DNA of 31,824 nucleotides from an uncultured Actinomycetes bacterium (GCA_963824995.1 CAWGRK010000007.1:124001-155824); one strand, 5' to 3'; numbered from the stretch's first letter, positions 8,986-28,400 are shown. The notes: generated by a model from the sequence alone, not told the origin. A program made the numbers and translations.

Positions 8986-9024
8986 AGGGATGAAACCACA
9001 CGACACCAAGGGGTTGAAGTCCTG

Positions 9025-9561: not shown

Positions 9562-9680
9562 GGTCCGCCCGCGTTCCTCCGCGGCAGGCTCCTCCTAGAA
9601 CACTACGAACCGGTGAAGGTCTCTCGATTGATCGCGGACGCCATTTTGCTCGTCCCAGCTAACCCAAAGGCGTTTCAAAC

Positions 9681-9727
9681 TCATCAATCCTGATGATGAC
9701 ACCAGCGGGCCTGTCGAGGCAGGATTG
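9681..9727 (+). repeat. Copy 2 of the duplicated element
   Basis: TCATCAATCCTGATGATGACACCAGCGGGCCTGTCGAGGCAGGATTG; matches 8940-8985. Confidence 0.85.
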
Positions 9728-9773
9728 CTCGGAGGTACACCGCTCGACCAGCAGAAATGGAGAAGGTACAACC

Positions 9774-10376: not shown

Positions 10377-10931
10377 TTACTCCTCGGGTGTGTCCACCTC
10401 GGTCTCAATCTCGGTCTCCACGAGGGCGGCGGCTTCCTGGTCGAGCATGGCGCCGACATCGGATGAGATCCCGCGGACCACCACCCGCCTCACCTCCAGC
10501 TCTTCGAGAAGGCGCCGCGCCCTCTCCACGTCATCGGCGGCGATGTTCGCCACCAACGCCGACTCGCCAGGGGCCAGGTCTTCGCCGAGCGCCCTGAGAT
10601 CGTCGTCCTCATAACCTTTGTCGCGGAGCTTGGCGACGAGGGCCCCGATGCCAGCGCCTATCGGAGCGCCCAGTAGGGCAACGGGACCAAGCATGATGCC
10701 CAGCAGGCCGGCCACCGCCCCGAACCCGAACCCGACCACGGCTCCCTCTGCAGTGCCGGCATCGTGGGTCTCCGCCCAATGGACCGCTCCATCCTGCTCC
10801 CTGCGGATCACTGCAGCCATGGTGATGCCGTTATCGCCCAGCGCCGGGACCAACGTCGCCAGAGCCCGGGTGGCCCCCTCGGATCCGCCGAAGGTCGCCG
10901 CCAGCAGTTGCAAGTCGCCTTCGCTCATCAT
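10377..10931 (-). CDS. DUF1269-like membrane-associated protein
   Basis: Glycine-rich hydrophobic hairpin [16 protein letters not shown]...GAGIGAL followed by [28 protein letters not shown] before ATG 10931. Confidence 0.75.
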
Positions 10932-11020
10932 CTGCTCCATCTCGCGAGGCAATCACGCTAACGAGATCGGCACGGTCCCATCTCCTTGTAGTGCCCATGG
11001 GATGGGTGTGGGTGCCTGTC

Positions 11021-11026
11021 TATTCT
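11021..11026 (+). promoter_or_regulatory. Probable -10 box of a leaderless gpmA transcript
   Basis: TATTCT located 6 nt before ATG 11033; no Shine-Dalgarno sequence. Confidence 0.5.
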
Positions 11027-11032
11027 CGGCCC

Positions 11033-11776
11033 ATGACGACCACCCTGGTGATGATCCGCCATGGCCAGTCCACGTGGAACCTGGAGAACCTGTTCACCGG
11101 TTGGACCGACGTCGAACTCACCGAGCGCGGTATCGCCGAGGCAGAGACTGCCGGGTCGGTGCTCGCTGCCGAGGGTTATGACTTCGACGTCGTACACACC
11201 TCGGTGTTGGTGCGGGCGATCCGGACCGCGGAGATCGTTCTCCACCGGATGGGTCTCTCGTGGATCGATGTTCGTCGCCATTGGAGACTGAATGAGCGGC
11301 ACTACGGCGCCCTCCAAGGACTCAACAAGAAGGAGACGGCCGACCGCCACGGTGCCGAGCAGGTCCGCTTGTGGAGGCGGAGCTACGACGTCCCGCCGCC
11401 GCCTCTCGAGCCCGACGACGAGAGGCATCCGCGGCATGACCCGCGCTACGCCTGGCTGCCGCCCGACGCCATACCCGCCACCGAGTGCCTGGCCGATGTC
11501 GTGGATCGGATGCTGCCCTATTGGTACGACCAGGTCGTCCCAGATCTGAGATCCGGCCGCCGGGTGGTGCTGGTAGCTCACGGCAACAGCATGCGGGCGC
11601 TGGTCAAACACCTCGACGGAATCGGCGACGAGGAGATCGTTGGAGTCAACATCCCTACAGGCGTTCCGCTGGTGTATCACCTCGATGACGAGTTGGCCCG
11701 GATCGAGAGCTTCTATCTAGGTGATCCCGATGCGGTTGCGGCGGCGTCCGAGGCGGTGGCGCGCCAGGCCGGATGA
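11033..11776 (+). CDS. gpmA: 2,3-bisphosphoglycerate-dependent phosphoglycerate mutase
   Basis: [56 protein letters not shown]. Confidence 0.97.
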
Positions 11777-11857
11777 AGCTCCCAACTGTGAATTGACCAC
11801 CTGGAGTGGCATACTTGTCCTCTCCTCGCCCCTGAATGAGCGGCCCGGGCAGTCACC

Positions 11858-12094
11858 ATGAATGTTGTAACCATCGTCATCATCGTCCTCCAGGTGATCG
11901 TTGCGATCGCCCTCATCGTGCTGATCCTGCTTCATGCCGGGCGGGGCGGTGGTCTCTCCGACATGTTCGGTGGCGGGATGGGACCCCTACAGAGCGGTTC
12001 CACTGTGGTGGAAAGGAACCTCGACCGGATCACAGTTGTCGTGGGTGTCGCGTTCGGGATCACCACGATGCTCCTCGCCTGGCTTCTCGGCTGA
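11858..12094 (+). CDS. secG: Preprotein translocase subunit SecG
   Basis: Two TM helices with LILLHAGRGGGLSDMFGGG and VERNLDRIT. Confidence 0.95.
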   Translation: MNVVTIVIIVLQVIVAIALIVLILLHAGRGGGLSDMFGGGMGPLQSGSTVVERNLDRITVVVGVAFGITTMLLAWLLG

Positions 12095-12106
12095 GCTTCT
12101 CCTCAC

Positions 12107-13825
12107 ATGGCTTTGTTCCGACGCGTCCTCTGCTTGTTGATGATCGCCCTGATGGCGGCTTCCCCGGCCTTGGCGACGACTGACACCACGACAGACCTCT
12201 CCGGTGGGCGCGCCACCGTCGCCATCGTCGGAGGCCCGATGTCGCTCAATCCGCTCATCGACCGCTCGGACGCGACCATGCAACTTGGGCCAATGCTGTG
12301 GGCGGGTCCTTTCCGCCTCGACCCGGAAACGCTCCGGCCCGAGCCGTGGCTGGTGCTCCGCCTCCCGACCCGCGAGAGCGGCGACCTCCGTGTGATGGCA
12401 GATGGCACGTTGCGCGTCGTGCTCCGCATCCGACCCGAGGCCGTTTGGGATGACGGGACCCCGGTAACCGCCGACGACTTCGTGTTCACCCACGAGGTGT
12501 TGACCGACCCGTCGGCAACGGTGGCCGATGACCTGAGAGCGGCGCATGCAGAGGTCGTCCCGGGTTCGGTCATAGGGAGTGCGAAGAGAGTCGAGTTCCG
12601 GCTAGCCAGCCCTTCGCTGGATTGGCTCGAAGCGTTCCCGTTCCTGTTACCGGCCCATGCACTGTCCGACAGCGACGCGCTCGCCGATTGGAGCACTTGG
12701 CCGAGCGCCGCACCATTCCGTGTCGAGGCGAACGTGCCCGGTAGTCATCTGCTCTTGGAGAGGAACCCGAGATATTGGGAGCAGGACGAGGCGGGTCGGT
12801 CGCTGCCCTACCTCTCCCAACTCGATCTCGTCTTTGCGGGAGACAGCGTGGATCTGGAGGATGGGTTTCGTCGAGGACAGTTCGACGTGATTGGAATCGA
12901 TCCGAGCTCGGGTGTCCGCCTGGCGACACTCCCCGGGGCGGCCACGTACGCGATGCCGGGCAAGGACTGGGAGCAGCTCGCCTTTGAGGTCGGTCCCGGA
13001 AGCGAGGTCCGAAATCCCGAGTCGCTGGTGGATGAGCTCGAGTTCCGAAAGGCGATCGCCATGGCGCTCGACCGGTCCCGGATCGCTGAGGCTGCCGGTG
13101 TCTCGAGCAACGAGGTTGCCTCTTCGGCGGTCACACAGAGCATGGGTCCTGAGGGACCCTGGAGCATGTACCACCACGACCCGGCCGCCGCCCGCGACCA
13201 GTTGAGGGCGCTGCAGCGCAGGCTCGGTCCCGGCACCGAACTGTCGCTGGTGCTCTCGGTCGGCGACTCGCCGGCACGCCGCCGTGTGGCGGCTGCCATC
13301 GAGCGTCAACTCGAAGCGGTGGGGATAGAGGTCACGGTGGAGAGGCTGGATGTGACCAGCCTCTTCGCCGACCGGGTGATACCGGGCGAGTTCGAAACCG
13401 CCACTTGGGCATGGGTGACGACACCGGGTGCGGCCGGCTCGGTGGATGACGCCCTCGAGTGGTTCTTCACCGCCCCCGAGGACGGCGGATACCAGTTCGC
13501 CGGTTGGGGGATCGACGGTGTCGGCGGTACCGAACTCGCATCATCCAGCGGGGATCTGACCGAGGTGTTCGACCTGAGCGACGCCGTCGCCGCACTCGAC
13601 GATGTGGACGTGGCTCTGGCCGAGCAAGCGCTGCTCATACCGCTCTATCGCTCCGTCGATGCCGCGGTGGTCCGCACCTCCCGCATATATGGATTCACCC
13701 CCGGGCACGGGCTTCTCAGCGGCGCCGCCCGGTGGTTCATCCCCGAGGGAGCACGCGGCCTCGAACGGTATACTTTCCTCCTCGGGCCGCCTCCGGCCCG
13801 TACCCACGTCGGAGTGGCGGAATAG
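12107..13825 (+). CDS. ABC transporter family 5 (peptide/nickel-type) solute-binding protein
   Basis: Signal peptide ending ALA; SLNPL, WDDGTPVTADDFVFT, LERNPRYW, RKAIAMALDR, LIPLY. The stop codon lies 18 bp inside the tRNA. Confidence 0.85.
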   Translation: MALFRRVLCLLMIALMAASPALATTDTTTDLSGGRATVAIVGGPMSLNPLIDRSDATMQLGPMLWAGPFRLDPETLRPEPWLVLRLPTRESGDLRVMADGTLRVVLRIRPEAVWDDGTPVTADDFVFTHEVLTDPSATVADDLRAAHAEVVPGSVIGSAKRVEFRLASPSLDWLEAFPFLLPAHALSDSDALADWSTWPSAAPFRVEANVPGSHLLLERNPRYWEQDEAGRSLPYLSQLDLVFAGDSVDLEDGFRRGQFDVIGIDPSSGVRLATLPGAATYAMPGKDWEQLAFEVGPGSEVRNPESLVDELEFRKAIAMALDRSRIAEAAGVSSNEVASSAVTQSMGPEGPWSMYHHDPAAARDQLRALQRRLGPGTELSLVLSVGDSPARRRVAAAIERQLEAVGIEVTVERLDVTSLFADRVIPGEFETATWAWVTTPGAAGSVDDALEWFFTAPEDGGYQFAGWGIDGVGGTELASSSGDLTEVFDLSDAVAALDDVDVALAEQALLIPLYRSVDAAVVRTSRIYGFTPGHGLLSGAARWFIPEGARGLERYTFLLGPPPARTHVGVAE

Positions 13826-13891
13826 GCAGACGCGCTAGGTTGAGGGCCTAGTGTCCTTAGGGACGTGGGGGTTCAAGTCCCCCCTCCGACA
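13808..13891 (+). tRNA. tRNA-Leu (anticodon GAG)
   Basis: Acceptor GTCGGAG/CTCCGAC, D arm with AGGCAGACGC, anticodon arm CTAGG-TTGAGGG-CCTAG, long variable arm, T-loop GTTCAAGTC; CCA not encoded. Confidence 0.97.
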
Positions 13892-13907
13892 CCGAGTTGA
13901 ACCCCCA
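13877..13907 (+). repeat. att-like site A (tRNA-Leu 3' end plus right arm)
   Basis: GTCCCCCCTCCGACACCGAGTTGAACCCCCA; 28/31 identical to 19321-19351. Confidence 0.85.
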
Positions 13908-14049
13908 GGTCAGAACCGGTTTCCGGCGCTGCTGGTGCATTCTGCTGTTCGGGGTGGCCGGCGGGAATGGCCACGGCGACGCCCGGCCGGAGCTACCCTC
14001 CGCGCCCCAACCCGAGTCGCGCCGGGGGTTAGGCAGCAGGCATCACTCG

Positions 14050-14679
14050 ATGCAAGTCGTTCACCTGGTCCGCCATGGCCGCACCGCGTGGAACGTGCAG
14101 CGGCGGGTAATCGGCTGGCTCGACGAGGGCGTGGAGCCCGTTGCTCGCCGCGACGCGCAGGCCGTGGCCGACGCGCTGGCGGGCGAGGCCGTGGCGGCGA
14201 TCGTGTCGAGCCCGCTGCGCCGGGCACTGCAGACGTCAGGTCCCTTGGCGAATCGGGTCGGTATCGAGCCGCGCCTCGACGACCGCATCGGCGAACTGCG
14301 GATGGGCCTTTGGGAGGGGCTCACCGAGGACGAGATCGCTGAACGATGGCCCGAGGAGTGGCGCCGATGGCGGACCGAGCCGCACACTCTGGCCCTCGAG
14401 GGTCGCGAGACGCTGGGCGAACTGAACGCCCGGGTCGCCGCGGTTCTGGACGAGCTCACATGTAGCTCAGTCGCCTCTGGCGCGACCGTGGTGTTCACCC
14501 ACGATGCCGTGGTGCGGGCCGCGGTCGCCTGGGCGCTCGGGACGGGACCCGAGGTCTACCGGCACGTCGAGGTCGCCAACTGCTCCATCACGACGGTACG
14601 CGTCCTCGACGGCGTGCGCCGGCTGGTGCGGACCAACCAGGTCGGCCACCTCGAACGGCGCGGTCGCGAGGGCTGCTAA
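14050..14679 (+). CDS. Histidine phosphatase family protein
   Basis: LVRHGRTAWN, SSPLRRALQT, ELRMGLWEG, FTHDAVVR, NCSIT. Confidence 0.9.
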   Translation: MQVVHLVRHGRTAWNVQRRVIGWLDEGVEPVARRDAQAVADALAGEAVAAIVSSPLRRALQTSGPLANRVGIEPRLDDRIGELRMGLWEGLTEDEIAERWPEEWRRWRTEPHTLALEGRETLGELNARVAAVLDELTCSSVASGATVVFTHDAVVRAAVAWALGTGPEVYRHVEVANCSITTVRVLDGVRRLVRTNQVGHLERRGREGC

Positions 14680-16771
14680 CGGCTCGGGGGCGGACGGGCC
14701 GACCTCGCCAGCCAGGATCGTGACGGTCACCGGCGACCGGCGGGCGAACGCGACGAGCCGGGCGAGGTCTATAAGCGACGTCACCACGGGGAGGCCACTC
14801 CCCGCGAACGCGTCTAGGTGGCCGGGCCGAGAGAGCCCGACGAAGCGGACGCCCGCGGCACGGGCGATGGCAGCGTCGCGCAGGGCGTCGCCGACGAACA
14901 GGACGTCGTTGGGAGCGACGCCGATCGCGGCCGCCCAGGACCGGAGCTGCCCCACCTTGGGACGGTACGGCCGCCAGCCGTCGACCGCAGCTGCGCGCTG
15001 GGCCAGCCCGTGGCGACGGCAAAACTCCTGGACGAGCTCGGCGCGAGTGCTGCTGCAGATGAGGGCGGGGACGTCGGCGCGCCCAAGGCGATCGATGGCC
15101 GCACCTGCGTCCGCGAACGGTCGGCAGCCTTCCATGAGGCCTTCCTTGGCGGATTCGAAATCGGCGGCGATGTCGTCGAGGCTCGGGTGGCCGTAGGCGA
15201 TGGCATCTAGCTGGGTCCGGAAGTCGTCGCCCGCGGTGCCGAGGTAGCGGCTCGTGGCCTCGTCGCGCGGCATGCCGCACCCGCTCGAGAGCAGCTCGGC
15301 CGCGAGCTTCGCGAGCGTCCCCATGGAATCTGCCACGGTGCCGTCGAAGTCGAACGCCACGGCACGCACCCCCATGTAATCGGCACCCGGACCGCCAGCC
15401 CACCAGGACGCCCGCAGCCGCACGATCACGATCCCCCCACAGAGGACCCCCAGGACGGCGAGCGCGGCCAGCAGCGAGCTGGCATGTCACTGCTGCGCCC
15501 AAGGCGCCGAGGGTCAGGATCAGCAGTCGCAGGTCGCGCCCGCGGCCGCCCGCGAGGAGGACACCGTGGTACCTGTGGCCGAGGTCGACGGCCGCCTTGG
15601 CCGTGGTGTAGCTGACGAGTAGGTGCCCGACGAGCGCCAGGCCGGCGATGGCTATCACGACCGGCACCTGCGCCGACCCAAGATGGCCGGCGACGTCCGC
15701 CGAGGTCGCGAGGTAGATGGCCGCGCCGGTAAAGAGCAGGCCGTCCGCCGCCCGGTCGAGGACCGCATCGAAGAACGAACCGAAGCGCGACGAGCGGTGC
15801 GCTAGGCGGGCGATCTCCCCGTCGCTGCCATCGAGGACGCTTGCCGCCGTGACGAAGACCGCGGCTACCACCGGGGCGTGGGCGACGAAGGCCGCCGCGG
15901 CGGCGATCGCGACGGCGAACGCGGCAATCGTGATCTGGTTCGGGGTGATCGTGGGGAAGACACCGAGCAGTACCGGGGTCACGAAGCGCTGCGAAACCGC
16001 GCGGTTCAGGCGCGTCGCCACGGCGCCGTCGAGCGCCTTACCGGTGCTTCGGAACAGGAACCGGCTGCCGCGGCGGCGGTCGGTCGGGGTGTCGACGTCA
16101 AACCACCATTCGTCGGCCTCGAGCGGCAGCCCGCGGGCCGTGCCGAGGCTGGCGAGCAATTGCATGGCAGCCGCGAACGCTGTGTCGCCGCATGCGGCGA
16201 CCTCCTCGACCGCGTCGAACACCGCAGCGCTGCAGACGAAGGCGCCCACGTCGAACGCGTCGTAAGCGGGCAGCATCTTGCCGACGGCCTCGACGCGGTC
16301 GCCGTTGAGTCGAACCTTCATAGCGTCGGCCGGGTCGACACCGGCGGCCCGTCCGAGCGAGCGGTCCACAGCGACGACGACCTCACCCGGTCGCACCGAC
16401 GTCGCCCGGAGCCGGCGCAACAGTGCCGGCGCGAAGACGTGATCGGCCATCACCAGCGCGAACGGTGCGTCGCCGACGATTTCCTTCGCGGCGAGAACGG
16501 AGAGTCCGTTGCCCTCCCGATAGCGCCCGTTGTGGACGATGGCAACGCGCAGCCCTCGGCGACGGCTCACGTCGACGGCCTCCCGGGCGACACGTTCGGG
16601 TTCATGTCCAGTGACAACTACGACGTCGTCGAAGCCGGCCTCGCCCGCCGCGACGATTGACCGTTCCAGGAGTGTCATACCCCCGACCCGCACCAGCGGT
16701 TTCGCACCCACCTTTGGCTCGAGGCGGGACCCAATGCCGGCGGCAAGCACGACAAGCCGGGACGTTTGCAT
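14467..16771 (-). pseudogene. IPCT/DIPPS-like nucleotidyltransferase-CDP-alcohol phosphotransferase fused to a HAD phosphatase; one frameshift at ~15487 (real or sequencing error)
   Basis: AAGGAG RBS and ATG 16771; LAAGIGSRL..KPL, GNGLS, MADH, WFDVDT; TPNQIT, LDGSDGEIAR..FGSFFDAVLDR, SYT, RDLR. Removing one base at 15487 restores the last TM helix and reads into HAD motifs FDFDGT, CSST, PK and FVGDALRD. Confidence 0.85.
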
Positions 16772-16805
16772 TCTTCGCGATACTCCTTCTTGCCGTAGCC
16801 CCGAG

Positions 16806-17000
16806 TGAGCCGACCTGGGATTGACACATTGCGGGCTAATTGGTCCCGCCCGTGGTGGCCAGGTTGTGACCGTACCAGTGGGCGCCCCCAGGACATGGGG
16901 TGTCGTACTCAACGCGTGGGATGTGCCAATCTCGCCGAGGAGGTGGATTGCGTTGTACCAGTCGATCCATTCGGCGGCGGTGAGTCGCACGGTCATTCTG
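16806..17000 (-). mobile_element. IS3-family 3' remnant
   Basis: Minus-strand peptide LTAAEWIDWYN..LGEIG/IPRVEYD resembles the IS3 transposase C-terminus; terminal TGAGCCGACCTGG at 16806 resembles IS6110-type TGAACCGCCCCGG ends. Confidence 0.6.
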
Positions 17001-17086
17001 CAGTTCCGAGCACCCGACTCCGACCAGCGACACGCCTTTGCGTAGCCGTGACCGAATTTCTCTTGTCCCCTCGGCGTGACTTTGAT

Positions 17087-17285
17087 GGCGCTTCGGAAAT
17101 GAGCGGGGTGTAGGGGGTCCTGGGAGGCTGACAGGGGCCCTGCCAATCTGATGGATGTAGGCCGTCAGATGGAAGGTCCCCGGTGGCGACGAACCCTATT
17201 CGCATGTGCAAGTTGCTCGTTGGATTACCCGACATCAACGTGCTTGGGGTGACGCATCCAGTGGCTGGGCCGGTGCGGGTGGGAG
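17087..17285 (+). mobile_element. ISL3-family 5' remnant
   Basis: GGCGCTTCG...GGTGTAG left end resembles IS1096-type ends; GTG 17183 starts MATNPIRMCKLLVGLPDINVLGV, an ISL3 transposase-like N-terminus, truncated after ~30 codons. Confidence 0.65.
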
Positions 17286-17344
17286 GTCTGCATGATGATC
17301 GGCAGCTGACCAGTCCGGCGCTGCTGGGGATGCGAAAATGTAGC

Positions 17345-17605
17345 TTCGGACTGGAGGTGGCAGGGCAGATCGCCTCGGCGACCGGGCCTTTGGCTCGTGC
17401 TGGTGGCCACGTTCGGAATCGGAAACGCGGCCGTCCTCGTGGCGGGCGGGATCGCGGCCTTGTCGCTGGGAGAGCGTGTGGCCGGCGCCCTCGTCGGAAG
17501 GCGACGTCTCCACCTGGGTGGGTTTACGAGCCTGTTGCCGCCGGCATTGGTCGTGTTGAACGGAGCGGTGCTCTCTCGGCTGGGCTGCCATCCAGAGCCT
17601 CGGAT
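17345..17605 (+). pseudogene. Fragment of a membrane protein, possibly the C-terminus of an RcnA/NiCoT-like transporter
   Basis: Frameshifted hydrophobic run LVLVATFGIGNAAVLVAGGIAAL...LLPPALVVLNGAVLS; family call tentative. Confidence 0.3.
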
Positions 17606-17681
17606 ACCACTGACCGGTTTGCTCGCCGGGTCGTCACGACGTCGGTGCTGTGGGCTTTAGCCCAGCGGCCCATCGCTGCTC

Positions 17682-17862
17682 ATGCCGATCGGAGCTTTCT
17701 CACCATTGTCAAGGCAAGAGAGGAAAGGGATGGCCGTAGAAACCGGTACCAGATCCAGAAACATCTGCCGCTGAGAGAAGCCCTCAGCCGGGAACGCACC
17801 CATCGGCAAGGTGCTAAACCTCCTGGTCGACGCCAACACACTCACCGGAGGAACGTGGCTGA
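17682..17862 (+). pseudogene. Winged-HTH regulator remnant (internal deletion and frameshift)
   Basis: SFLT joined directly to ERDGRRNRYQIQKHLPLREALSRERT/IGKVLNLL, the termini of a common actinobacterial small HTH family; the HTH core is missing. Confidence 0.6.
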
Positions 17863-18641
17863 CTCCGGGAGAGAGGGCCCCAAGCCGTCCCCGTCCCCCG
17901 GCCCTAAAAGAAGTTCGATGTCACGGGACAGGGCGGCAGCGGCGGTGGCCACGCATTCCCGCCGACGATGCGGTGAAGGCGACCGAACTCCAGGTGCCGA
18001 CCACGAGGGGGCAGCGCCCCAAGGGCGATTCCGCTCTGGAGATTCTGATATCGGACAGGTTTAGCACGGACCACAACCGACCTTGGCGTCCGGTTCGAGC
18101 TGGACGACCGCGAGCGGCCAGGGCGGTCGATTCTTGCCGCGTCGTTGACGGCTCCACGTTTCGTGAGCGGCATCGAACGAAGCGTGGGGGTTCGTCTCAC
18201 CGACGCAGTCCGCCGACCACATGTAGCGAGCTCGCGGTCACCCTGCGGTCGGCTCGAAGTTGTACGCCGCCTGGGTGACTCGCCGGCGGCGAGGATCAGC
18301 GCCCGCCGTCGGGAGCAGTCGAGCACGACCCCGGCGTAGTGGGCGGCGAGCAACACAGCCGGTGTGGTCGGCGGGTCGGCCGGCATCAGCACGGCAGGTT
18401 CCCGCAGCCGGTGGATCAGCACAGGCTCGTCCAGCGCGCCGACTTCTGCGTGAAGTTCTCGAGGATCGCCGAGGCGATGTGCTGGGTGGCCGTGTTTGTT
18501 CCCGTGGGCCCGCGGTGTAGAGAGCCGTTCGTAAAGGGGTAAGGCCGACCGCACCCGCGCAGTAGTGGCTGCCGAGGGGTGACGGCGACGCCGGTCGGCC
18601 GCTTGATCTGTCCCGCCAGGCGCGGACGGCGCGCTTTCGGA

Positions 18642-19217
18642 TCAGCTGGGCGTGATCGTCGTACGCATCACTCGGTGGTTCTTGCCCTTGGGCCGCTCTA
18701 GCTCGAGCCGAACTAGTTCGAAGCGGCTCGGGTCACGTTGTATGAGGAACGAAGCCGAGATCCTCTTTCCTGGGTGCTTGCGGGTACCCTCCTCTACGAG
18801 GCGACCACCGGCCTTTGCGATCAGGTCCAGCGCACCCTGGAGGGCGGCCGCTGATACACCTCCGCGCCGGTAATCCCGGTCGACGAAGAAGCAGGGGAGC
18901 CGGTAGTCCCGCGGCTCGACTAGCCCGTTCTCGTACTCCTTGCGGTGATAGATACGCGGCAGCTGCTCCGGGGTGTCTTACCGGCACCACCCGACGGCGC
19001 GATCACCGTCGAAGACCGAGCGCGGCGTGTGACTGTCCCTCGTTGACCAGACGTCGCTTCAGGGCGCGGTTGCCTCGGGGCCTCTGCCCCCTCTTCGGGG
19101 AACTTCGGGTGGAACGAGAGGCACTAGCGGCCTCCCCACACGCCGTCGTGCCGCTCGACGAACTGGGCAAAGGCATCCCAGGTGTCGGGCTGAAGCGGTT
19201 TGATGGTGTACGGCGAT
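18642..19217 (-). pseudogene. GNAT family N-acetyltransferase pseudogene
   Basis: YTIKPLQPDTWDAFAQFVERHDGVWGG, LPRIYHRKEYE, CFFVDRDYRRGGVSAAALQGAL, RPKGKNHRVMR; in-frame stops at 19124-19126 and 18978-18980 plus frameshifts. Confidence 0.85.
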
Positions 19218-19292
19218 GCGGGCAGCGTAGGACCCGATTGCGGACGGTAGGCGTCCGCTGTCGAGTTACGCGGCCACTCGACGTTGTGCCTT

Positions 19293-19351
19293 CCAGACCT
19301 GCCGTGTACTCAGGGTGTGTGTCGCCCCTCCGACACCGAGTGCAACCCCCA
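19293..19351 (+). repeat. att-like site B (left arm, core, right arm)
   Basis: Left 44 bp are 40/44 identical to 23518-23561; right 31 bp are 28/31 identical to 13877-13907; core GTGTC-N8-GACAC. Confidence 0.9.
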
Positions 19352-19710
19352 CGAGCCGGTGTATCTGCGCAGGTCACAGTGGGTAAGCGGCCGGTGGGGG
19401 TTGACTCGCGGTGATCCGGATCGAGGACGTCATCTGCGGTTCTGTCAACATTGCCGGCTTGGGTGGCCCGCCTCGCCTTCCACGCCACGCTGCCGGTTGA
19501 TCAGCGCCCTCGACGACAAGGCGTAGACCTACCGCCGGTCGAGCCATCGGTTGGCGGGCGTGCGGTGCCCTGCCCGGCTCGCTCCACGACGCCCGGGGTC
19601 GGCGACTCAAGGCGTGGCGCTTGCCGACTGCCGTCAGAACCCGACCTAGAGGAAACGGAGACCTATCGGCGGGCGCTGCGCTTGAATGAGGGGGTGGGCG
19701 GAGGTCCTCC

Positions 19711-22700
19711 TTGGTGACCTGTGGCGCTTGTGGCGGGGAGAATCCTTCAGACGACCTTTTCTGCAACCACTGCGGTTCGCAGCTGAGTTTGTCCTGCCCC
19801 GGATGTGACTCTCCGGTTTCTGCGGGCCAGCGCTTCTGCGGTAAGTGTGGCCATTCCTTGACGGAGACTGCGGAGACAGAGGCGGACCCCGCTCCTCAGT
19901 CCCTTTCAGGCGAGCTCCGTCTCGTGTCGGTGCTCTTCTGCGACCTGGTGGGGTCGACGGCGCTTGCTGAGCGTCACGAAGACGATGAGGTTCGTGACCT
20001 GCTCGAGGGCTACTACGAGACGGCTAAGGAGGTGGTGGCCGGCTACGGGGGCGTCATTCAGAAGTTCATCGGCGATGCGGTCGTGTCGGTGTGGGGAGTA
20101 CCCCGTGCGCTGGAGGATGACGCCGGCCGCGCGGTGCGCGCCGCCCTGGAGTTGGTCGACGCGGTGGCCGCCTTTGGGCGACGGGTGGGGAAGCCAGAGC
20201 TGGCGGTCCGCGCCGGGGTGGTGACGGGTCGGGCGGCTTCGGTCGATGACTCCGATGTGATCGTGGTGGGGGACCGGGTCAATACCGCCTCCCGAGTGCA
20301 GTCGGTGGCGTCTCCCGGAAGTGTGCTGGTCGACGACGTCACCTTCGAGGCCACTCGGGCCTCGGTGGCTTACCGCGACGCTGGCATCTTCGAGTTGAAA
20401 GGAAAGGCCGACCCGGAGCACCTGTGGACTGCGGAGCGGGTAGTAGCCGGGACCGCCGGGCTCGATCGGCTCGACGGGCTCGAGGCCCGGTTCGTGGGCC
20501 GGGAGTCTGAGTTGCGGCAGGTCAAGGAGCTGTTCCATACCGTGATGGAGCGGGGCTCGGCCCGTCTGGTGTCGGTTGTAGGTCCGGCAGGCAGCGGGAA
20601 GTCCCGGCTGCGCTCGGAGTTCTACCGCTACATCGACGGTTTGGTCCAGACCGTGTACTGGCACGGGGGCCGCTGTCTGCACTACGGGGAGGGGGTTGCC
20701 TTCTGGGCCCTGGCGGAGATGGTGCGCCAGCGCTTCGGGGTGGCAGAGGACGACCCGTCGGAGACCGCCGCGGCCAGGCTATCCGCCGGCCTTGAGGAAC
20801 TGGTGGCCGACCCGGGGGACCGGGAGTTCGTCGAGCCCCGGCTGGCCCACCTGCTCGGTTTCGGCGGGGGAGAGCGGTCCCGGGAGGACCTCTTCGCCGG
20901 GTGGCGGCTCCTCCTCGAGCGCCTGGCGGACCAGAACCCGGTGGTGCTGGCGGTAGAGGACCTGCAATGGGCGGACGAGGGGCTGTTGGACTTCCTGGAC
21001 TCGCTGTTGGACTGGTCGGCCTCCCACCCCATCCTGGTGCTCACCCTGGCCCGGCCCGAGCTGGGGGAGCGGCGCCCGGGCTGGGGCAATAGGCGCAACG
21101 GCACAATCATTAATTTGCAGCCGTTGGACGCAGCCTCGATGCGCATCCTGCTGTCTGATCTAGTGGAAGATCTGCCGAACGAGTTGGCGAGTCAGATCGT
21201 CCGGCAATCCGACGGTGTGCCCCTATATGCCGTCGAGACAATCCGCGGCCTGGTCGACCGGGACCTGGTACAGCCGAGAGAAGGCGTCTACCGGCTGGTC
21301 GGCGAGGTGGACCGGCTCCAGGTGCCGGCAACGCTGACCGCACTATTGGCGGCTCGTCTCGACGCGCTCAATGCCGAAGAGCGGAGGTTGGTCAAGGATC
21401 TCTCCGTACTCGGTGCCAGCTTCCCCCGTGAGTCGTTGCGCGGAGTTACGGACCTTGAGCCGGAACATATTGAACGGCTCATCGCATCGCTGGTCGAGAA
21501 GGAGATCCTGGCGGTGCGCAGCGACCGGCTCTCCCCCGAGCGGGGCCAGCTCCAGTTCACGCAAAACCTGTTGCGCTCGGTGGCCTACGACACCCTGACC
21601 CGTCGGGAGAAGCGGGCCCGGCACCTCGCCGCGGCCGCCCAGCTGCGGGCCGAGTTCCCCTACGACGGCGCTGAGGTGGCCGACGTGATCGCCGCCCACT
21701 ACCAGACCGTGCTCGACCTGGACCCCGACGCCCCCGACGCCGCCACGGTGCGCTCCGAGGCGGCGGCAGCATATCGGCAGGCCGGCGACCGCTCTGCCGA
21801 CCTGGGGGCTCCCGCCGCCGCCTTCGTGGCCTACCGCAAGGCGGCCCAGTTGCTCGAGGGGAGCGGCGACGACCTCGACGTGATCGCAGCTGCCGGGAGG
21901 ATGGCCTCAAGGGCGGCCCGCTGGGCAGAGGCGGTGGATCTGCTGGGGAAAGCGGTCACCCGACTGGAAGCGGAGGGACGCGACGATGAGGCCCGCGCCG
22001 TCATGGCCGAGCTCGCCAACGCTCACACTCAGTGGGGCCATCCCGACGAGGCCATCACGTTGGCACGTCGGGCCCTGGAACGCACCCCTCCGGATGCCGT
22101 CGGCCCCGGTACCGCAGATCTCTTGCGGCGGCTGGGAAAGAACCTCGCTTTCGCGGGCGAAATCGCCGAGGCGGCGCCCCTGATCGAGCGGGCGATCGGG
22201 ATCGGGGAAGAGCTCGACGACCAAAGGCTCCTCGCCGATTCGCTCGATGCAGAGGCGGTCAGGTTGTGGTTCTCCGGCCGTATGGTCATGGCGCGATCGG
22301 TTGGCGAGGCGGCGGTAGAGGCGGCCCGGGCCAGCGGTCTGCTCGATCAGCTGCATCGGAACTTGAGCAACCTGGGTGACGCGCTTCTCAGCTCCGATCG
22401 GCCTGCAGTCGACGTGCTCCGTGAGGCGGTCGACATCGCTCGCCGGATGGGCGACCCGGCCGCGGTGGCGATCAGCACGGCCAACGTGGTCAACGCGCTC
22501 ATCTACATCGGAGCGTGGGACGAGGCCGCCGCTCTCACCGCTGGGACGATCGAGGAAGGCGTCGAATTCAAGGGGTCAGGCGGCGGCTTATTGCACGATC
22601 GGCTCGTTCTGATCAACGCCCTTCGGGGAGACCTTGCCGCCGCCCACCATCACCTCGACATTGCCAAGGAGATGCTGGCGCCCGAGGACCTCCTAGATGT

Positions 22701-23232
22701 AGAAATCTACGCTGCAGCCGAGGCGGCGGTGAGACTCGTTGAGGGAGACTTCTCCAGCATCCTGTCCGAGGCGCCGGAGCGGCTCACATCCATGGCACAA
22801 ACGTTCGGCTGGTTCCAAGAGTCCGCCCGTCAGTTGTGGCCCGACGCAGTTGAAGCGGCGCTGCGCGCCGGTGACGGTGCCGCGGCCGACAGTCTGGTCG
22901 CCATGCTGGAGGCCGTCCCGCCCGGTGGATTGTCTCCCTATCTGCGGGCCCAACTCGCCCGCACCCGGGCCCGACTAGCCGCCGCCCGGGGCGAGCATGA
23001 GGACGTGGAACCCGGCCTCCGCCACGCAACCGAACGCTTCGCAGCCATGAGCTACCCCTACTGGGAGGCCATGGCCAGTCTCGACCTCGCTGAATGGCTC
23101 TCGGATCAAGGCAGGAACGATGAAGCGAAGGCGCCCCGCGACGCAGCCGCCCAGACTTTCGACCGGCTCGGCGCAGCACCCGATCTCGCCCACGCACGGA
23201 GGCTCGGTGGCATTAGGGAAGTAGCTGGCTGA
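19711..23232 (+). CDS. Double zinc-ribbon, class III adenylate/guanylate cyclase, AAA/STAND ATPase and TPR-like protein
   Basis: Four CxxC pairs; LFCDLVGST, KFIGDAV, GDRVNTASR; Walker A GPAGSGKS, Walker B VEDLQWAD, GVPLY; helical C-terminus. Confidence 0.92.
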   Translation: MVTCGACGGENPSDDLFCNHCGSQLSLSCPGCDSPVSAGQRFCGKCGHSLTETAETEADPAPQSLSGELRLVSVLFCDLVGSTALAERHEDDEVRDLLEGYYETAKEVVAGYGGVIQKFIGDAVVSVWGVPRALEDDAGRAVRAALELVDAVAAFGRRVGKPELAVRAGVVTGRAASVDDSDVIVVGDRVNTASRVQSVASPGSVLVDDVTFEATRASVAYRDAGIFELKGKADPEHLWTAERVVAGTAGLDRLDGLEARFVGRESELRQVKELFHTVMERGSARLVSVVGPAGSGKSRLRSEFYRYIDGLVQTVYWHGGRCLHYGEGVAFWALAEMVRQRFGVAEDDPSETAAARLSAGLEELVADPGDREFVEPRLAHLLGFGGGERSREDLFAGWRLLLERLADQNPVVLAVEDLQWADEGLLDFLDSLLDWSASHPILVLTLARPELGERRPGWGNRRNGTIINLQPLDAASMRILLSDLVEDLPNELASQIVRQSDGVPLYAVETIRGLVDRDLVQPREGVYRLVGEVDRLQVPATLTALLAARLDALNAEERRLVKDLSVLGASFPRESLRGVTDLEPEHIERLIASLVEKEILAVRSDRLSPERGQLQFTQNLLRSVAYDTLTRREKRARHLAAAAQLRAEFPYDGAEVADVIAAHYQTVLDLDPDAPDAATVRSEAAAAYRQAGDRSADLGAPAAAFVAYRKAAQLLEGSGDDLDVIAAAGRMASRAARWAEAVDLLGKAVTRLEAEGRDDEARAVMAELANAHTQWGHPDEAITLARRALERTPPDAVGPGTADLLRRLGKNLAFAGEIAEAAPLIERAIGIGEELDDQRLLADSLDAEAVRLWFSGRMVMARSVGEAAVEAARASGLLDQLHRNLSNLGDALLSSDRPAVDVLREAVDIARRMGDPAAVAISTANVVNALIYIGAWDEAAALTAGTIEEGVEFKGSGGGLLHDRLVLINALRGDLAAAHHHLDIAKEMLAPEDLLDVEIYAAAEAAVRLVEGDFSSILSEAPERLTSMAQTFGWFQESARQLWPDAVEAALRAGDGAAADSLVAMLEAVPPGGLSPYLRAQLARTRARLAAARGEHEDVEPGLRHATERFAAMSYPYWEAMASLDLAEWLSDQGRNDEAKAPRDAAAQTFDRLGAAPDLAHARRLGGIREVAG

Positions 23233-23517
23233 TTGACCCGCGTGTTTCAAACTGCGTTCGGCCGGTGGTCCCAAATGTGGAGGTGCGATGGATCCCTACG
23301 ATCCTGCATCTCGCGGCCAGGCGGGACATACACGTCTTTGCTCCTGGTGATCTACGACCCCTTGTTCCGGATTCATGACCCGGGTGGTATGCCGGTGCCC
23401 ATCGCACCCATACCTGGACAGCTACCGCCGCCACTTGGGACGCAGTGTCTCTCACAGAGGGTGTCATCCCCGCTTCGAGGCCGATGCGGGTGGCGAGGTC
23501 AACGGAACGACTGTCTC

Positions 23518-23561
23518 CCAGACCTGCCGTGTACTCAGGGTTTGTGTCCGTCCTCCGACAC
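23518..23561 (+). repeat. att-like site C
   Basis: CCAGACCTGCCGTGTACTCAGGGTTTGTGTCCGTCCTCCGACAC; 40/44 identical to 19293-19336. Confidence 0.9.
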
Positions 23562-23564
23562 GAT

Positions 23565-23590
23565 CTGACCAGCACGAAAGTGCTGGTCAG
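23565..23590. other. Perfect 11-bp hairpin with GAAA loop (displaced tRNA terminator or att arm)
   Basis: CTGACCAGCAC-GAAA-GTGCTGGTCAG, starting 3 bp after core C. Confidence 0.7.
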
Positions 23591-23856
23591 CGCAGTTTTC
23601 GGTGGCGGTCGAGCGGCTCGGATCGGACCCTTGTCATTGGTTTGTCATCATCGCCACGGCGACCCTGCTAGCGGCCCCTGCACGATCAGCCGGCGACCTC
23701 TCCAGGTTCGCCGGGGTTCATCCCCGAACGGCACCTCGGTGGCAATGGCCCAGGTCGTTAAGGCTGCGCGTTCTGGGACAGTCGACGGCGCTGGTGATGC
23801 AACCCGAGCCGTCGTTCCGTCGCGAGGCGACGGCCAATGTGCCAGGACAAATCACG

Positions 23857-24645: not shown

Positions 24646-25212
24646 ATGCCCTCCAACGCCGGCTGTGCGACGCTGCGGGGCGTGGAGGGTCCTGTTCGGG
24701 TAGGCGACACGGTGAGGCGACCTCAAGGTCCCGGCACGGCGTTTGTTCACTCGGTGCTCCACCGTCTCGAGGGGGCCGGCGTGACGTGGGCGCCGCGCTC
24801 CACTCGGGATCGATGAGCTCGGTCGCGAGGTCCAGTCTTGGATCCCTGGCGTCACGCCTTCGACGGGTGACGATGTCGACCCGCTCGCGCTGATTGAGAT
24901 CGTGCGGGTCACGACCTGACCGCTGACACGGTCGTTGACGCCGAGTGTGTTGTGCATGACGACATCCAGCCGCGGAACGTCGTGGTCTTGCGTCAGACCC
25001 CGGTGGGACTGATTGATTGGGAGCAGGCTCGCTCAGGACGGCGAGTAGAGGACGTGGCCAAGGTTGTTGGGCCTACATCGAGCCTGGCAAGGACAAGACG
25101 CCGTCGAGGTCGTACGTCGATGGCGTCCAGGCAGCAGAGACAACCAGGCCGATTCGAGCGCTCAGCTCGATCGAAGCTGAGACCGTTGAACACTCGCCTC
25201 GGTGAGAGGTGA
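24646..25212 (+). pseudogene. Aminoglycoside-phosphotransferase-like kinase pseudogene
   Basis: VRVGDTVRRP, GIDELGREVQSWIPG, HDDIQPRNVV and LIDWEQA..VEDVA distributed over different frames. Confidence 0.75.
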
Positions 25213-25407
25213 GGATCACAGGGAAAGAAACCGAACCGACGAAGCAGGTCACGCGATCCTTGATGCCGAATCTCGCTGATCAACTAGACAATTCGTCCTG
25301 ATTCTCGGCGTCCGATCGCTTCGCTTGCTCGAGGCTTTGTCGATTGGGTGCTGAGCAGCCGATGCCCGAGCAGAATGTGCTCCGATGAGACTGTTGTGGG
25401 GGATGAG

Positions 25408-28400
25408 GTGAGTTTGGGCTCGGTTCCGGCCGAAAGCCGCCTGGAGCAGTTGATCGGTCGGCTCCTTGTCGCCGCGGAGACGTCGCTGGCGGAGGGTGAC
25501 TTCGAGGCGGCTCGGGCCACCGCAGAAGAGGTCCGGGCGGTGAGCCCGGAAGAGCGCCGGGCTGCTGACATCCTGGAGCGGGTGACCCGCTCGCAGCGCG
25601 CTCCGGAGGGTGAGCGCGCCTTGATGACCGTTCTGTTCGCCGACCTCGCCAACTCAACGGCTCTGGCGGGACGGGTCGAGCCGGAGGTGATGCGGGACCT
25701 GCTCGCGGCCTATAGGGGGGCGGCGAGCCGGTCGGTGGAGAGGTTCGGCGGCCATGTGCTCCAATGGCTCGGCGACGGGGTGCTTGCGGTGTTCGGCTAC
25801 CGCCGGGTGTTCGAGGATGATGCCAGGAGGGCGGTGTCCGCCGCACTGGATCTGGTTGCGGCAATCACCGAGGCCGGCCCGGACATGAGGATCCGTTTCG
25901 GTGTGGAGCTTGAGGTGCGGGCCGGCGTCCACACCGGCTTGGTGGTAGTCGCCGAGGTGGGGGATCAGACCGCCCGGGGGGAGCGAGACTCGATCGTCGG
26001 CGCCGCCCCGAACCTGGCCGCTCGAATCCAGGGCGAAACGGCGCCGGGCACGGTGGTGATCAGCGACGTCACCCAGCAGCTTGTCGACCCCGACTTCCAT
26101 CTCAGATCGCTGGGGCTGCGCCAATTGAAGGGTGTTGTCCGGCCGGTGGAGTTGTTCGCCGTGCAGGGACCGCGTCATCCCGGGGCACGGCTCGACGCGG
26201 ATCGCTTCCGTCGAACGCGCTTGGTTGGCCGGGACCAGCCCCGAGCCCTCCTGGCAGGAGCGTGGGAGCAGGTCAGCGCCACAGCCGACAGCACAGCCGG
26301 TGGGGGACAGGCGGTCCTCATCGCTGGAGAGGCGGGGATCGGCAAGTCACGGGTTGCCGCCGACATCCGCCAGCGCGTCGCCCGTAGCGGGGGGGCCACG
26401 CTCGAAGCGGGATGTCTGGCCTACCACACCAACATCCCGCTGTGGCCGGTTGCCCGCATGATGGAGCGGGTCCTCGACAGCGGCGTGCCGGCCGATCTTC
26501 TGGCAAGTCTGGTCGGACATCTCCAAGTGTTGGAGATAGACGTCGCCGAGGTGGCGCCGCTCTTTGCCCCGCTGTTGGGGATCGCCCAGCCCGAGGGCTA
26601 TCCGGCCCCCGAGCTCGAGCCGACGGCCCTTCTCGATCGGACCCTGGACCGCTTGATCGACTGGCTGAGCCGGCTGCCGCAGCGGCGACCCACGCTCCTC
26701 GTCTTCGAGGATCTGCATTGGGCCGACCCGACGACCATCGAGCTGCTCGGTCGTGTCGTCAGGCGGGTGCCAACCGGCCTGCTGCTGGTGATGACCACCC
26801 GCGACCCGGAGGCACTCGGGTGGCGCGACCGGGTCCTCGACGTCTCCCTCGACCACCTTCCTAGTGAGGCCGCAGCCTCGCTGGTGGAACAGCTGGTAGG
26901 CACGACCGACCTGGCGGAGGAGACGCGGGCATCGATCATCGATAGAGGGGAAGGCATCCCTCTCTTCATCGAAGAGCTGACCCGGTCGGCTTTGGCCGCC
27001 GGGGAATCCGAACCTCTCCCGCTCCGACTCCACGAGCTGCTGGCGGGTCGGTTGAAGGCGCCGGGACTCGACCTGCGAGTCGCACAGGTTGCCGCCACCG
27101 TGGGCTCCAGCTTCGACCTGGCGACAGTGGCAGCCGTGATCGACGACCGAGACCGAGTCATCGGCTCGCTCGCTCAGCTCGCCGAAGTAGGCATCATCGA
27201 GTCGACCGGGGACCTTCTCGACGGTGTTGGCTACCGATTCGGCCATGCGCTCCTCCGAGATGCCGCGTACGAAACCCAGGTCCTCGAAACACGGCTCCAA
27301 ACCCACGCCGGCGTCGCCCACGAACTCGAGCGGACCGGAGCCGATCCGGCTTTGGTAGCTCAGCATCTCGACCTGGCGGACCTTCCCGACCGCGCCATTC
27401 CTTTTTATATGGCCGCGGCACAGGGAGCCCAGGCACGGGGCGCCCACGCAGAAGCGATCCAACTTCTGACTCGGGTGGTTGAGCTGGTCAAGCTCATCCC
27501 GGCGAGCGACGACCGGGACGTAAGCCTTCTCACCGCCCGCATGCTGCGGGCGCTCAGTATCAGCGCCACGGAGGGCTACGCCGCCCCCGGGGTCAGAGCC
27601 GACCACCGCAAGGCGGAAATCATCACCGAGCGCCTCGGTGACCGACCCGAGGTTATGCCGGCGCTGCTCGCCATCTGGGTCACCGGGCTGACCAGCAGTG
27701 AACTCCGCACCTCAGGTCGTCTCATCGCCCGCCTCCTCCAGATGGCATCCGACCCGATGTTCGCCTGGTTCGAGCCCGAGGCGCGAGCCGGCGCCGGTTT
27801 TCAAAGCCTCCACCAAGGAGACCTCGCCGAGGCACGTTTCCACCTGGAGCGCGCCGTGGAGGGATTCGCTCAGCGGCCCGCCGACCAGGTCGTGTCATGG
27901 TTCTGGCCCCTGCCCCATGACCCGGTCGCCATCACCAAGACCGGCCTGGCCTGCGTCTCCAACCTCGAAGGGAACGCGGTCGAGGCGCAGCGCTGGGAAA
28001 GGGAAGCGATCGGTCGCGCCGAGGGTGTCGGGTTCCCCGGTCGCCCCATCAGCCTGGCTTTCATCAAGGGCTACGGCGCCTGGGGTCGCCGACTCCTCGG
28101 CGACATCACCGCCATGCGCGCCCTTGGCGCCGAGATCGTGGCCATCGGGCAGGAACACGGTTCCAGCTACTGGGAGAGGCTCGGATCGCTGTACGTCGGC
28201 GCCCCGAGCCTCGACCTCGACCCCGACCCCGAATTCGTCGAACAGACCATCGGCTTCCTCCGAGCGATGGGCCACGAAGCACTGATCGCCTCCGACCTCG
28301 CCTACCTGGCGAAGCTGCGCACCCTCAGCGGACGAACCGACTTAGCCGTCGAGACCATCGAATCTGCGATCCGGATCGTCCACAACACAGGGGAGAGCCT

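Follow-up and report, generated by a model that had tools for sequence, protein, structure and literature searches.

How did the DNA behind one tRNA-Leu(GAG) gene of an uncultured Actinomycetes bacterium come to be divided into segments by repeats that end in the 3' bases of the tRNA itself, and what would be needed to move such segments? The locus lies in a stretch of 31,824 nucleotides, referred to here as the window. An earlier note on this DNA had proposed an integron-like capture array of integrase-less cassettes mobilised in trans, or alternatively two related elements that had each lost their integrase. The reading that we favour, with a probability of about 0.65, is tandem site-specific integration at a tRNA hotspot, in which islets without an integrase, similar to cis-mobilizable elements, have kept their attachment sites. 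Two related MAG contigs found by a contig scan, L001 and L002, 82-86 % identical upstream, were used as the comparison sample; each was read for 10 kb behind the tRNA, and the array of L002 continues beyond that locus.

Repeated sites behind the tRNA gene

The tRNA-Leu(GAG) gene is intact (13808-13893, plus strand; ARAGORN, an Rfam tRNA match of 52.8 bits and the sequence). The core, CCTCCGACAC, lies within its last bases (site A, 13883-13892), and the window contains exactly three exact copies of this 10-mer, at 13883, 19327 and 23552, all on the plus strand. The two recurrences named in the earlier note are therefore exact, and its values for the core-to-core spacing, 5,444 and 4,225 bp, hold. 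When one mismatch was permitted the 10-mer gave 10 matches against 5.1 expected, which is not above chance.

Both recurrences are preceded by a left block of about 48 nt, the 5' part of which does not resemble the tRNA. At site B (19287-19336, plus strand; sequence, repeat and profile searches) the block comprises a 24-mer, a tRNA-like last 24 nt and the core (19327-19336). Site C (23512-23561, plus strand) has the same block and core (23552-23561), and no right arm of the type found at site B follows it. Over these 50 nt sites B and C are 88 % identical, and along the stretch for which the earlier note had given 40/44 the same figure was counted from the sequence, the block itself extending further, to about 48 nt. 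The 24-mer occurs only at 19293 and 23518, even with up to three mismatches permitted, and was not matched in any of 100 shuffles. Four full copies of the left block were found in three genomes of three species, at 19288 and 23513 in the window, at 14193 in the reverse complement of L001 (L001rc) and at 15798 in L002, all of them in direct orientation with the tRNA and adjoining unrelated DNA. Conservation begins sharply 2-3 nt ahead of the 24-mer with no likeness further left, and in each of the three genomes its final 24 positions agree with the 3' end of the tRNA, so that the left arm described earlier holds up as a discrete, conserved unit.

The common right arm of sites A and B, given as 28/31, was also recovered (13877-13907 against 19321-19351, 90.3 %, E 1.4e-4). 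That of site B, here called type 1, is part of a longer unit of about 125-130 nt (19337-19468, plus strand; blastn, nhmmer, fold and motif searches), which blastn matched at 85 % to L002 10054-10179 and at 80 % to L002 15798-15926. In total three copies of about 125 nt, 79-85 % alike, begin at 19337 in the window and at 10054 and 15846 in L002. The site B arm contains two T-arm-like motifs, one inverted (19344-19352, minus strand) and one direct (19394-19402, plus strand), which can pair with the tRNA or with one another, in the latter case as a long hairpin. For this hairpin no compensating changes were seen among the copies, and the L002_B copy folds no better than shuffled sequences. A dyad also surrounds site A (13866-13907, plus strand), with a T-arm half TGGGGGTTCAAGTC at 13866-13879, a 14-nt spacer that holds the core, and an inverted copy GAGTTGAACCCCCA at 13894-13907; pairing is seen in the DNA fold of 13870-13990, and the minus-strand match of the dyad to the tRNA 3' part, score 26, is inside the shuffle range.

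Folding placed a hairpin behind every junction. The one behind site C (23565-23599, plus strand; fold and consensus scan) resembles a terminator, with an 11-bp stem CTGACCAGCAC / GTGCTGGTCAG, the loop GAAA and a following TTTT; its fold z is -3.5, and none of 200 shuffles was as stable. A hairpin also stands at this offset behind the L001 site, and the one behind site C is possibly the original downstream flank of the tRNA.

A profile search of the window and of the L001 and L002 loci returned no additional left block or right arm, indicating that there is no fourth site within the window, and the attachment unit had no match in phage or plasmid collections. Left block and right arm repeats occur only behind tRNA-Leu(GAG), in every case direct and with the 3' bases of the tRNA itself at their end. 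A direct repeat of a tRNA 3' end that bounds a piece of DNA is the trace classically left when an element integrates into a tRNA gene. It is very improbable that the architecture arose from repeats collapsed or misjoined in a metagenome-assembled contig. Several window genes do have broken frames, which counts in favour of such an error; however, two independent contigs of other assemblies show this site architecture too, the left block in both arguing against an artefact, and repeats of 50 nt are far shorter than what usually misleads assemblers.

Turnover between related genomes

In L001 and L002 the left block lies 4.2 and 5.8 kb behind the tRNA-Leu gene, respectively, around unrelated genes. 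These two contigs are 94 % identical to each other up to the tRNA 3' end, and downstream of it only the 48-nt block is common to both. In blastn comparisons the window up to 13907 matched L002 up to 10068, and window 19337-19462 matched L002 10054-10179. The tRNA of L002 is thus joined directly to the counterpart of the window's site B right arm, which makes segment 1 (5,443 bp, 13894-19336), absent from L002 exactly at the direct repeat, an insertion or deletion difference bounded by the repeat. Such presence and absence was seen for segment 1 only and not for segment 2 (4,225 bp, 19337-23561, delimited by the core and repeat positions). A fully empty site, in which the tRNA would be followed by the flank of site C, was not seen in the window or the two relatives, and what lies right of site C in the window has no homology to the DNA right of the L001 site.

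Variation of the cargo between the sites, which the earlier note had named as something to look for in relatives, was found in both L001 and L002. Within the L001 segment is a second copy, at 82 % identity, of a gene of the chromosome. The region 28784-31686 of the window (plus strand) is 86 % identical to the cargo of the first L002 segment (L002 10424-13388) by blastn and by blastp of ORFs; it lies 5.2 kb right of site C, outside the window's array, and 86 % is an ordinary ortholog-level identity. This placement is not predicted by a simple history of clean cassette insertions. Comparison of the three loci by tblastx gave only high-G+C noise and was not used.

The ortholog-level copy of L002 cargo elsewhere in the window would fit a reading in which the repeats are native, either a tRNA-like signal for processing or termination or anchor points of homologous exchange, and the variable DNA between them came by ordinary recombination or duplication. 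The hairpin after every junction and the pairing potential of the right-arm T-arm-like motifs point the same way. We consider this improbable. In 13-26 kb Rfam matched no family besides the tRNA; the repeats are confined to the 3' side of this tRNA, direct and ending in its 3' bases; segment 1 is missing from L002 exactly at a repeat; and the pattern as a whole is the footprint of tRNA-gene integration described above.

Cargo of the segments and the search for a recombinase

Segment 1 carries three genes, on both strands, and about 2.5 kb with no coding signal or a weak one. A histidine-phosphatase-family gene (13897-14676, plus strand; Pfam His_Phos_1, E 4.6e-49, with a codon-position G+C signal), the true start of which is probably later than 13897, is followed on the minus strand by a HAD-family phosphatase gene (14470-15429; Pfam HAD_2 and Hydrolase, coding signal) and by a gene resembling a bifunctional inositol-1-phosphate cytidylyltransferase / CDP-inositol transferase (15430-16800, the approximate coding part of ORF 14591-17146). 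The latter matches Pfam NTP_transf_3 and CDP-OH_P_transf, and also NCBIfam NF041135 with E 1.3e-61, which is under the cut-off of that family; its coding signal stops near 16800. The stretch 16800-19286 has no family match. In frames at 17-18.6 kb an Atlas lead to DnaB-N was set aside, as its score of 0.84 is below the tool's 0.9 line and it had no Pfam support, and a second Atlas query frame there gave no match. The sole database match of the stretch is the frame 17907-18554 (minus strand), in which long blocks of identity are interrupted by shifted blocks; we took this to mean that another contig contains almost the same DNA, which does not prove a gene, and the plus-strand frame across it has several stops.

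Segment 2 encodes a protein with a zinc ribbon, an adenylate/guanylate cyclase domain, an AAA_16 NTPase and TPRs (19711-23232, plus strand; Pfam, strong coding signal). A recent duplication linking this gene to a second cyclase gene at 25348-28689 was rejected, the two being just 30 % identical along the longest aligned stretch. By blastp of ORFs the segments have no protein in common. G+C is 0.71-0.73 at 14.0-16.5 kb compared with about 0.60-0.68 upstream of the tRNA and about 0.66 nearby, and the G+C of segment 2 and the third-position G+C of the cargo genes are host-like. Frames are broken in the HAD and transferase genes and in a hydrolase at 29287-30943, reflecting indel errors or pseudogenes in the sequence.

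A T-arm 9-mer is also present inside segments, at 18184 in the window and at 7925-7933 in L001, and these copies were considered as candidate decayed tRNA 3' fragments. Scanning by local alignment gave the L001 copy a score of 24 and left the window copy below the listing threshold of 24, while 5 of 10 shuffled strands scored 23 to 34 in the same scan; neither copy therefore stands out.

The claim that both window segments are without a recognisable recombinase was borne out by the family searches of ORFs and frames. Pfam searches of 109 ORFs (at least 100 aa) from the 31.8-kb window and of 85 ORFs (at least 90 aa) from L001 and L002, within 10 kb behind each tRNA, returned no family of recombinases, transposases or phage integration proteins. 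The same was true of 72 ORFs compared with PHROGs and, with E up to 1, of 75 stop-to-stop frames (at least 45 aa) adjoining the sites. Neither Phage_integrase nor any other recombinase was found in the 13.8 kb upstream and 17.9 kb downstream of the tRNA.

We propose that the DNA behind tRNA-Leu(GAG) is an integration hotspot, where circular DNA with an attP-like unit would recombine with the tRNA 3' end. This unit would consist of the left block of about 48 nt, of which the last 24 nt appear to mimic the T-arm and acceptor end, the core, and the right arm with its T-arm-like motifs. The crossover would fall within CCTCCGACAC(C), and integration would rebuild the tRNA. Repeated events would stack segments, so that each junction would combine the left block of one segment with the right arm of the next. 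The segments would then be islets of the cis-mobilizable type, with metabolic and signalling genes, which kept attL and attR and have lost, or never carried, integration genes; further movement would require a recombinase from elsewhere, for instance from a complete element joining the array. As no recombinase acting on these sites was found, we infer from the geometry alone that a site-specific recombinase made the junctions; its type, the order of events and any present-day mobility are likewise putative.

Could the array instead be an active platform, in which a dedicated recombinase encoded elsewhere moves integrase-less circles with an attachment unit of about 175 nt and the tRNA serves as the primary site? 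Such a platform, the principal proposal of the earlier note, would amount to an integron analogue with large cassettes and a tRNA as its base. None of the four complete segments (two in the window, one each in L001 and L002) has a recognisable recombinase, nor has the visible 4.2 kb of a fifth, the second segment of L002. Both arms stop sharply at unrelated DNA in every copy, which would be expected of a minimal functional site more than of larger elements that decayed independently; the window 24-mers are identical despite differences at 4 of 10 positions in the neighbouring spacer; and some cargo comes from relatives of the host, as with the second gene copy in L001. However, binding-site selection in decaying elements, or gene conversion, would also yield sharp limits, and no such recombinase was found in the DNA examined. 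The segments are multi-gene units of 4-6 kb with genes on both strands, segment 1 includes about 2.5 kb of non-coding or decayed DNA, and the sample is just three genomes. In addition, look-alike systems, in the part of their description considered here, have integrase-bearing members in the same arrays (PMC3146451). We thus regard an active platform as unlikely, and it is similarly doubtful that tRNA-Leu(GAG) is a gene-capture entry site through which related bacteria trade ordinary chromosomal genes in the form of multi-gene cassettes.

Comparison with known systems

Islands, integrative elements and prophages that target tRNA genes integrate at the 3' end, have att sites that mimic the T-arm and acceptor end, are bounded by a direct repeat and carry an integrase by the att site. 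The present locus resembles them in the 3'-end site, the mimicry, the direct repeat at the far boundary and the intact tRNA-Leu(GAG), and differs in that an integrase next to the att site is missing from every segment examined.

Integrons have intI and attI by the array, mostly single promoterless ORFs in one orientation, and an attC crossover in the GTT of the R' box. Like an integron or an integrase-less attC cluster, the locus is an array of unrelated cargo split by a repeated site, and the right arm forms an imperfect palindrome that has AAC ... GTT in its arms. Unlike in integrons, neither intI nor attI adjoins the array, the units span 4-6 kb and carry several genes on both strands, the shared junction, CCTCCGACAC, is located 5' of the palindrome and not in the GTT box of the attC consensus, the palindrome is not kept in L002_B, and the first site is a tRNA gene. 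The integron reading was rejected on intI/attI, the position of the attC crossover and the form of the cassettes. Of the interpretation in the earlier note, direct-repeat-bounded units with varying cargo stacked at a tRNA 3' end are supported, whereas the integron-like label is not. Both its main idea and its lost-integrase alternative would fall within one known category, cis-mobilizable elements (CIMEs) in tandem accretion.

CIMEs and tandem accretion were reportedly first described for ICESt1-related elements of Streptococcus thermophilus in 2004. According to the part of a later account used here (PMC5704250), a CIME is a deletion derivative of an ICE or IME and is mobilised once an ICE has integrated next to it. 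The present segments share with these elements the attL and attR flanks, the tandem position at the 3' end of a target gene and, within the limits of Pfam and PHROGs, the lack of integration and transfer genes. In contrast to CIMEs as described there, no parent element, conjugation gene or integrase remnant was detectable in the DNA examined, and descent by deletion is thus assumed here.

The ssrA islands of Dehalococcoides are similar in several respects, as far as the consulted part of their description goes (PMC3146451): several stand in tandem behind one small RNA gene, a direct repeat of the 3' end of that gene bounds each island, each repeat is closely preceded by a short conserved motif that cannot be aligned with the gene, and the region is highly variable between strains. 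Fifteen of them, about half, are without an integration module and were proposed to be cis-mobilizable elements, whereas 16 carry a large serine-recombinase (DsiB) module by attL; no recombinase was found in the segments examined here, and the Resolvase and Recombinase families had no match in the window or the L001 and L002 loci. The target here is a tRNA-Leu and not tmRNA, the host is an uncultured actinomycete, and the conserved left motif covers about 38 nt before the core compared with 15 bp in Dehalococcoides.

The locus is therefore a hotspot of gene swapping, of which other bacteria already provide described examples. If the blocks are relics, it adds one more example of island decay and accretion; if an enzyme encoded elsewhere does move them, it would offer a tractable case of trade in housekeeping-type genes without a classical mobile element. 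What is new is the attachment site behind tRNA-Leu(GAG) in this uncultured actinomycete lineage, which had not been described before, and the complete turnover of the DNA behind the tRNA between genomes with 94 % identity beside it.

Att-like sites at tRNA-Leu(GAG)

The sole tRNA gene in the window, tRNA-Leu(GAG) (13808-13893, + strand), ends in the first of three related sites. Its 3' bases CCTCCGACAC (the core of site A, 13883) occur as exact further copies at 19327 (site B) and 23552 (site C), both on the + strand. The 10-mer CCTCCGACAC alone is weak evidence, with 10 matches compared to 5.1 expected when one mismatch is allowed, whereas its longer context is strong evidence. The non-tRNA 24-mer that precedes both recurrences was found in the window only at 19293 and 23518 (up to 3 mismatches), and 0 of 100 shuffles matched. 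Sites B and C are 88 % identical over 50 nt, and 40 of 44 positions agree over the stretch named in the earlier note; sites A and B share 28 of 31 positions (13877-13907 compared to 19321-19351). The earlier note had described these repeats, the 24-mer and the shared right-hand sequence, and had put the two segments between the sites at 5,444 and 4,225 bp, all of which the present analysis reproduces.

The core closes a left block of about 48 nt, the limits of which were set by aligning the two window copies with copies from two related contigs, L001 and L002. In this alignment the conserved sequence starts abruptly, 2-3 nt ahead of the 24-mer, with no likeness further left. Searched with a 50-nt profile of the block, the window, L001 and L002 sequences contain exactly four full copies. 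As profile positions 27-50 also fit the 3' end of the tRNA of each of the three genomes, the block consists of about 24 nt of non-tRNA sequence and a diverged copy of the tRNA T-arm and acceptor end. In the T-loop, and in the three bases preceding CCTCCGACAC, the copies are unlike the tRNA, and because of this divergence any crossover would be confined to the 10-13 bases common to all copies.

The right arm of site B (type 1, about 125-130 nt, 19337-19468) lies to the right of the core and has two further copies in L002. Two copies of the T-arm motif GTGGGGGTT are present in it, an inverted one immediately behind the core and a direct one about 50 nt further on, and the two could pair. The motif occurs four times in the window (0.21 expected) and five times in L002 (0.10 expected). 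At site A, the tRNA T-arm makes up a 14-nt dyad with the 14 nt that follow the tRNA, and the 14-nt spacer between them holds the core. Because the pairing in the right arms is not kept by compensating changes, and the stem of the L002 B-like site has three mismatches and folds no better than shuffles, the motifs are better regarded as possible protein-binding sites than as a conserved fold. Site C has the left block and the core, and its right flank (23565-23599) differs from the arm of site B, consisting of an 11-bp hairpin followed by TTTT (z -3.5; 0 of 200 shuffles as stable).

Further copies of the GTGGGGGTT 9-mer, followed by loosely tRNA-3'-like sequence, are present within segment 1 (18183-18208) and the L001 segment (7905-7935, - strand). 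Neither rises above shuffled sequence; they may be older, decayed att scars.

The locus in related genomes

A scan of genome contigs anchored on the 3'-terminal 53 nt of the tRNA returned the two relatives, L001 and L002. Both are from uncultured actinomycete MAGs (contigs CAVTEU010000007.1 and CAVWWM010000006.1), and neither is the contig from which the window was taken. In the conserved genes that precede the tRNA, their identity is 82-86 % with the window and 94 % between themselves; past the tRNA 3' end L001 and L002 have only the 48-nt left block in common. L001 has one segment of 4.19 kb, which runs from the tRNA to a C-like site that has the left block, with 2 mismatches in the 24-mer, and a hairpin flank after it. 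In L002 a type-1 right arm lies directly behind the tRNA and a B-like site with both arms 5.8 kb further on, after which the array leaves the locus.

L002 corresponds to the window up to 13907 and then continues with the sequence found after site B (window 19337-19462, 85 %). It looks like the window minus segment 1, the difference falling exactly at the direct repeat, and this presence or absence at the repeat is the footprint expected of site-specific insertion or excision. Variation of cargo between the sites had been among the things to look for in relatives, and it was found. When 399 frames of at least 60 aa from the variable regions of all three sequences were compared to one another by blastp, no proteins were common to the segments apart from two cyclases, an alcohol dehydrogenase pair (28 %) and the hydrolase region of L002 and the window. 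The sites are a conserved feature of the locus in three species, beside unrelated cargo.

Window 28784-31686 has 86 % identity to the cargo of the first L002 segment (10424-13388); in the window this stretch lies 5.2 kb past site C, on its right, and outside the array as it had been drawn earlier. Past the last visible sites, the flanks of the window and L001 have no homology beyond the similar hairpin. The L001 segment contains a second copy (82 %) of a chromosomal gene found upstream of the tRNA, so at least some cargo derives from related genomes. For these reasons the history of the array is no simple pile of clean cassettes.

Cargo and neighbouring genes

Segment 1 (13894-19336) has three genes, namely a histidine-phosphatase family gene, a HAD phosphatase gene and a bifunctional inositol-1-phosphate cytidylyltransferase/CDP-inositol transferase-like gene, and a stretch of about 2.5 kb in which the coding signal is weak and no family matched. 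G+C is 0.71-0.73 at 14.0-16.5 kb compared to about 0.66 nearby. The cytidylyltransferase and CDP-alcohol transferase ORF (14591-17146, - strand) does not reach a stop until it has overlapped the HAD gene (14470-15429), read in another frame, by 840 nt, and within 14470-17146 (- strand) the coding signal changes frame near 15430-15500; a frameshift may have interrupted a three-domain fusion, a stop may have been lost, or the assembly may contain an indel error. The frame at 17907-18554 (- strand) has a sole database relative, P0001, with identical runs of at least 60 residues interrupted by unrelated shifted blocks, which suggests that another contig carries nearly identical DNA with small indels and that this is not the true frame.

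Segment 2 (19337-23561) contains a single large gene, the domains of which are zinc ribbon, cyclase, AAA_16 and TPR. Beyond site C, on its right, there are a RibD_C gene, an APH-type kinase fragment, a second cyclase/AAA_16 gene (30 % identical to that of segment 2 over the longest aligned stretch) and the hydrolase region. The isolated APH-type phosphotransferase fragment (24898-25209, + strand) covers Pfam positions 163-230 of 239 (E 7.9e-10) amid weak coding signal and is probably a gene remnant. Four overlapping frames at 29287-30943 (+ strand) are together the homologue of a single 456-aa hydrolase frame in L002 (11179-12546), each piece with 86-96 % amino-acid identity, reflecting either a pseudogene or indel errors. 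The region common to the window and L002 also contains two diverged direct copies of a sequence of about 120 nt (28945-29063 and 31118-31241, 73 %), with a matching pair in L002 (10584-10748 and 12821-12977, 72 %).

Upstream of the tRNA, a PIN-domain protein (2829-3221, + strand, E 7.8e-15), encoded between methyltransferase and uvrC genes, is probably the toxin of a toxin-antitoxin pair. Many actinobacteria have whiA and gap between the CofD/YvcK-like and phosphoglycerate kinase genes; here the latter directly follows the former (5875-8135), and no whiA- or gap-like families were found among window ORFs of at least 100 aa. A 47-nt repeat (87 %; 8940-8985 and 9681-9727) precedes a 167-aa gene without family match (9663-10196), of which L001 has two copies (8618-9189 and 13554-14115), one syntenic and one (82 % alike) in the segment behind the tRNA.

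Recombinases and comparison with known systems

Integrase, resolvase, transposase and excisionase families were found neither among the 109 window ORFs of at least 100 aa (Pfam) nor in 75 stop-to-stop frames of at least 45 aa from 16.9-19.7 kb and 23.2-25.35 kb (E up to 1), and PHROGs gave no recombinase-type family in 36 window frames. From the relatives 93 ORFs of at least 90 aa were listed; all but 8, which are located upstream of the tRNA, were compared to Pfam, and these 85 gave no match to a recombinase family. The 36 ORFs of the relatives compared to PHROGs gave only a weak HNH match (E 1.3e-3) and one family of unknown function. No recombinase was thus found in the four complete segments or in the visible part of a fifth (18 kb of the window and 10 kb of each relative behind the tRNA), in line with the earlier statement that neither window segment has a recognisable one. 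The att unit had no match in phage or plasmid collections.

The most economical reading is that circles with an attP-like unit would have integrated repeatedly and site-specifically into the tRNA 3' end, leaving junctions of left block, core and the right arm of the next segment, in segments now without recombinases. That both arms end abruptly where unrelated DNA begins, and that the two 24-mers of the window are identical, would also agree with a platform that depends on a recombinase encoded elsewhere, akin to the mobilisation in trans proposed in the earlier note; we consider such a platform rather unlikely. Repeated integration of circles remains the reading we prefer. The array itself, in which integrase-less islets lie in tandem at a tRNA hotspot, is real and well defined, and its site is conserved in at least three species.

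In the attC consensus of integrons the crossover lies within the GTT box of the folded site. The crossover here would not, no intI adjoins the array and the cassettes are not single ORFs in one orientation, and the label integron-like is therefore dropped. The array would instead match cis-mobilizable elements in tandem accretion, as these are defined in PMC5704250. Of the ssrA islands of Dehalococcoides (PMC3146451), 16 have a serine-recombinase module, whereas none was found in the four complete segments here or in the visible part of the fifth. The resemblance to these islands is close: the Dehalococcoides islands are also in tandem with a repeat of the gene 3' end and, directly before each repeat, a conserved motif that is not part of the gene, they vary strongly from strain to strain, and 15 of them are without the integration module (PMC3146451).
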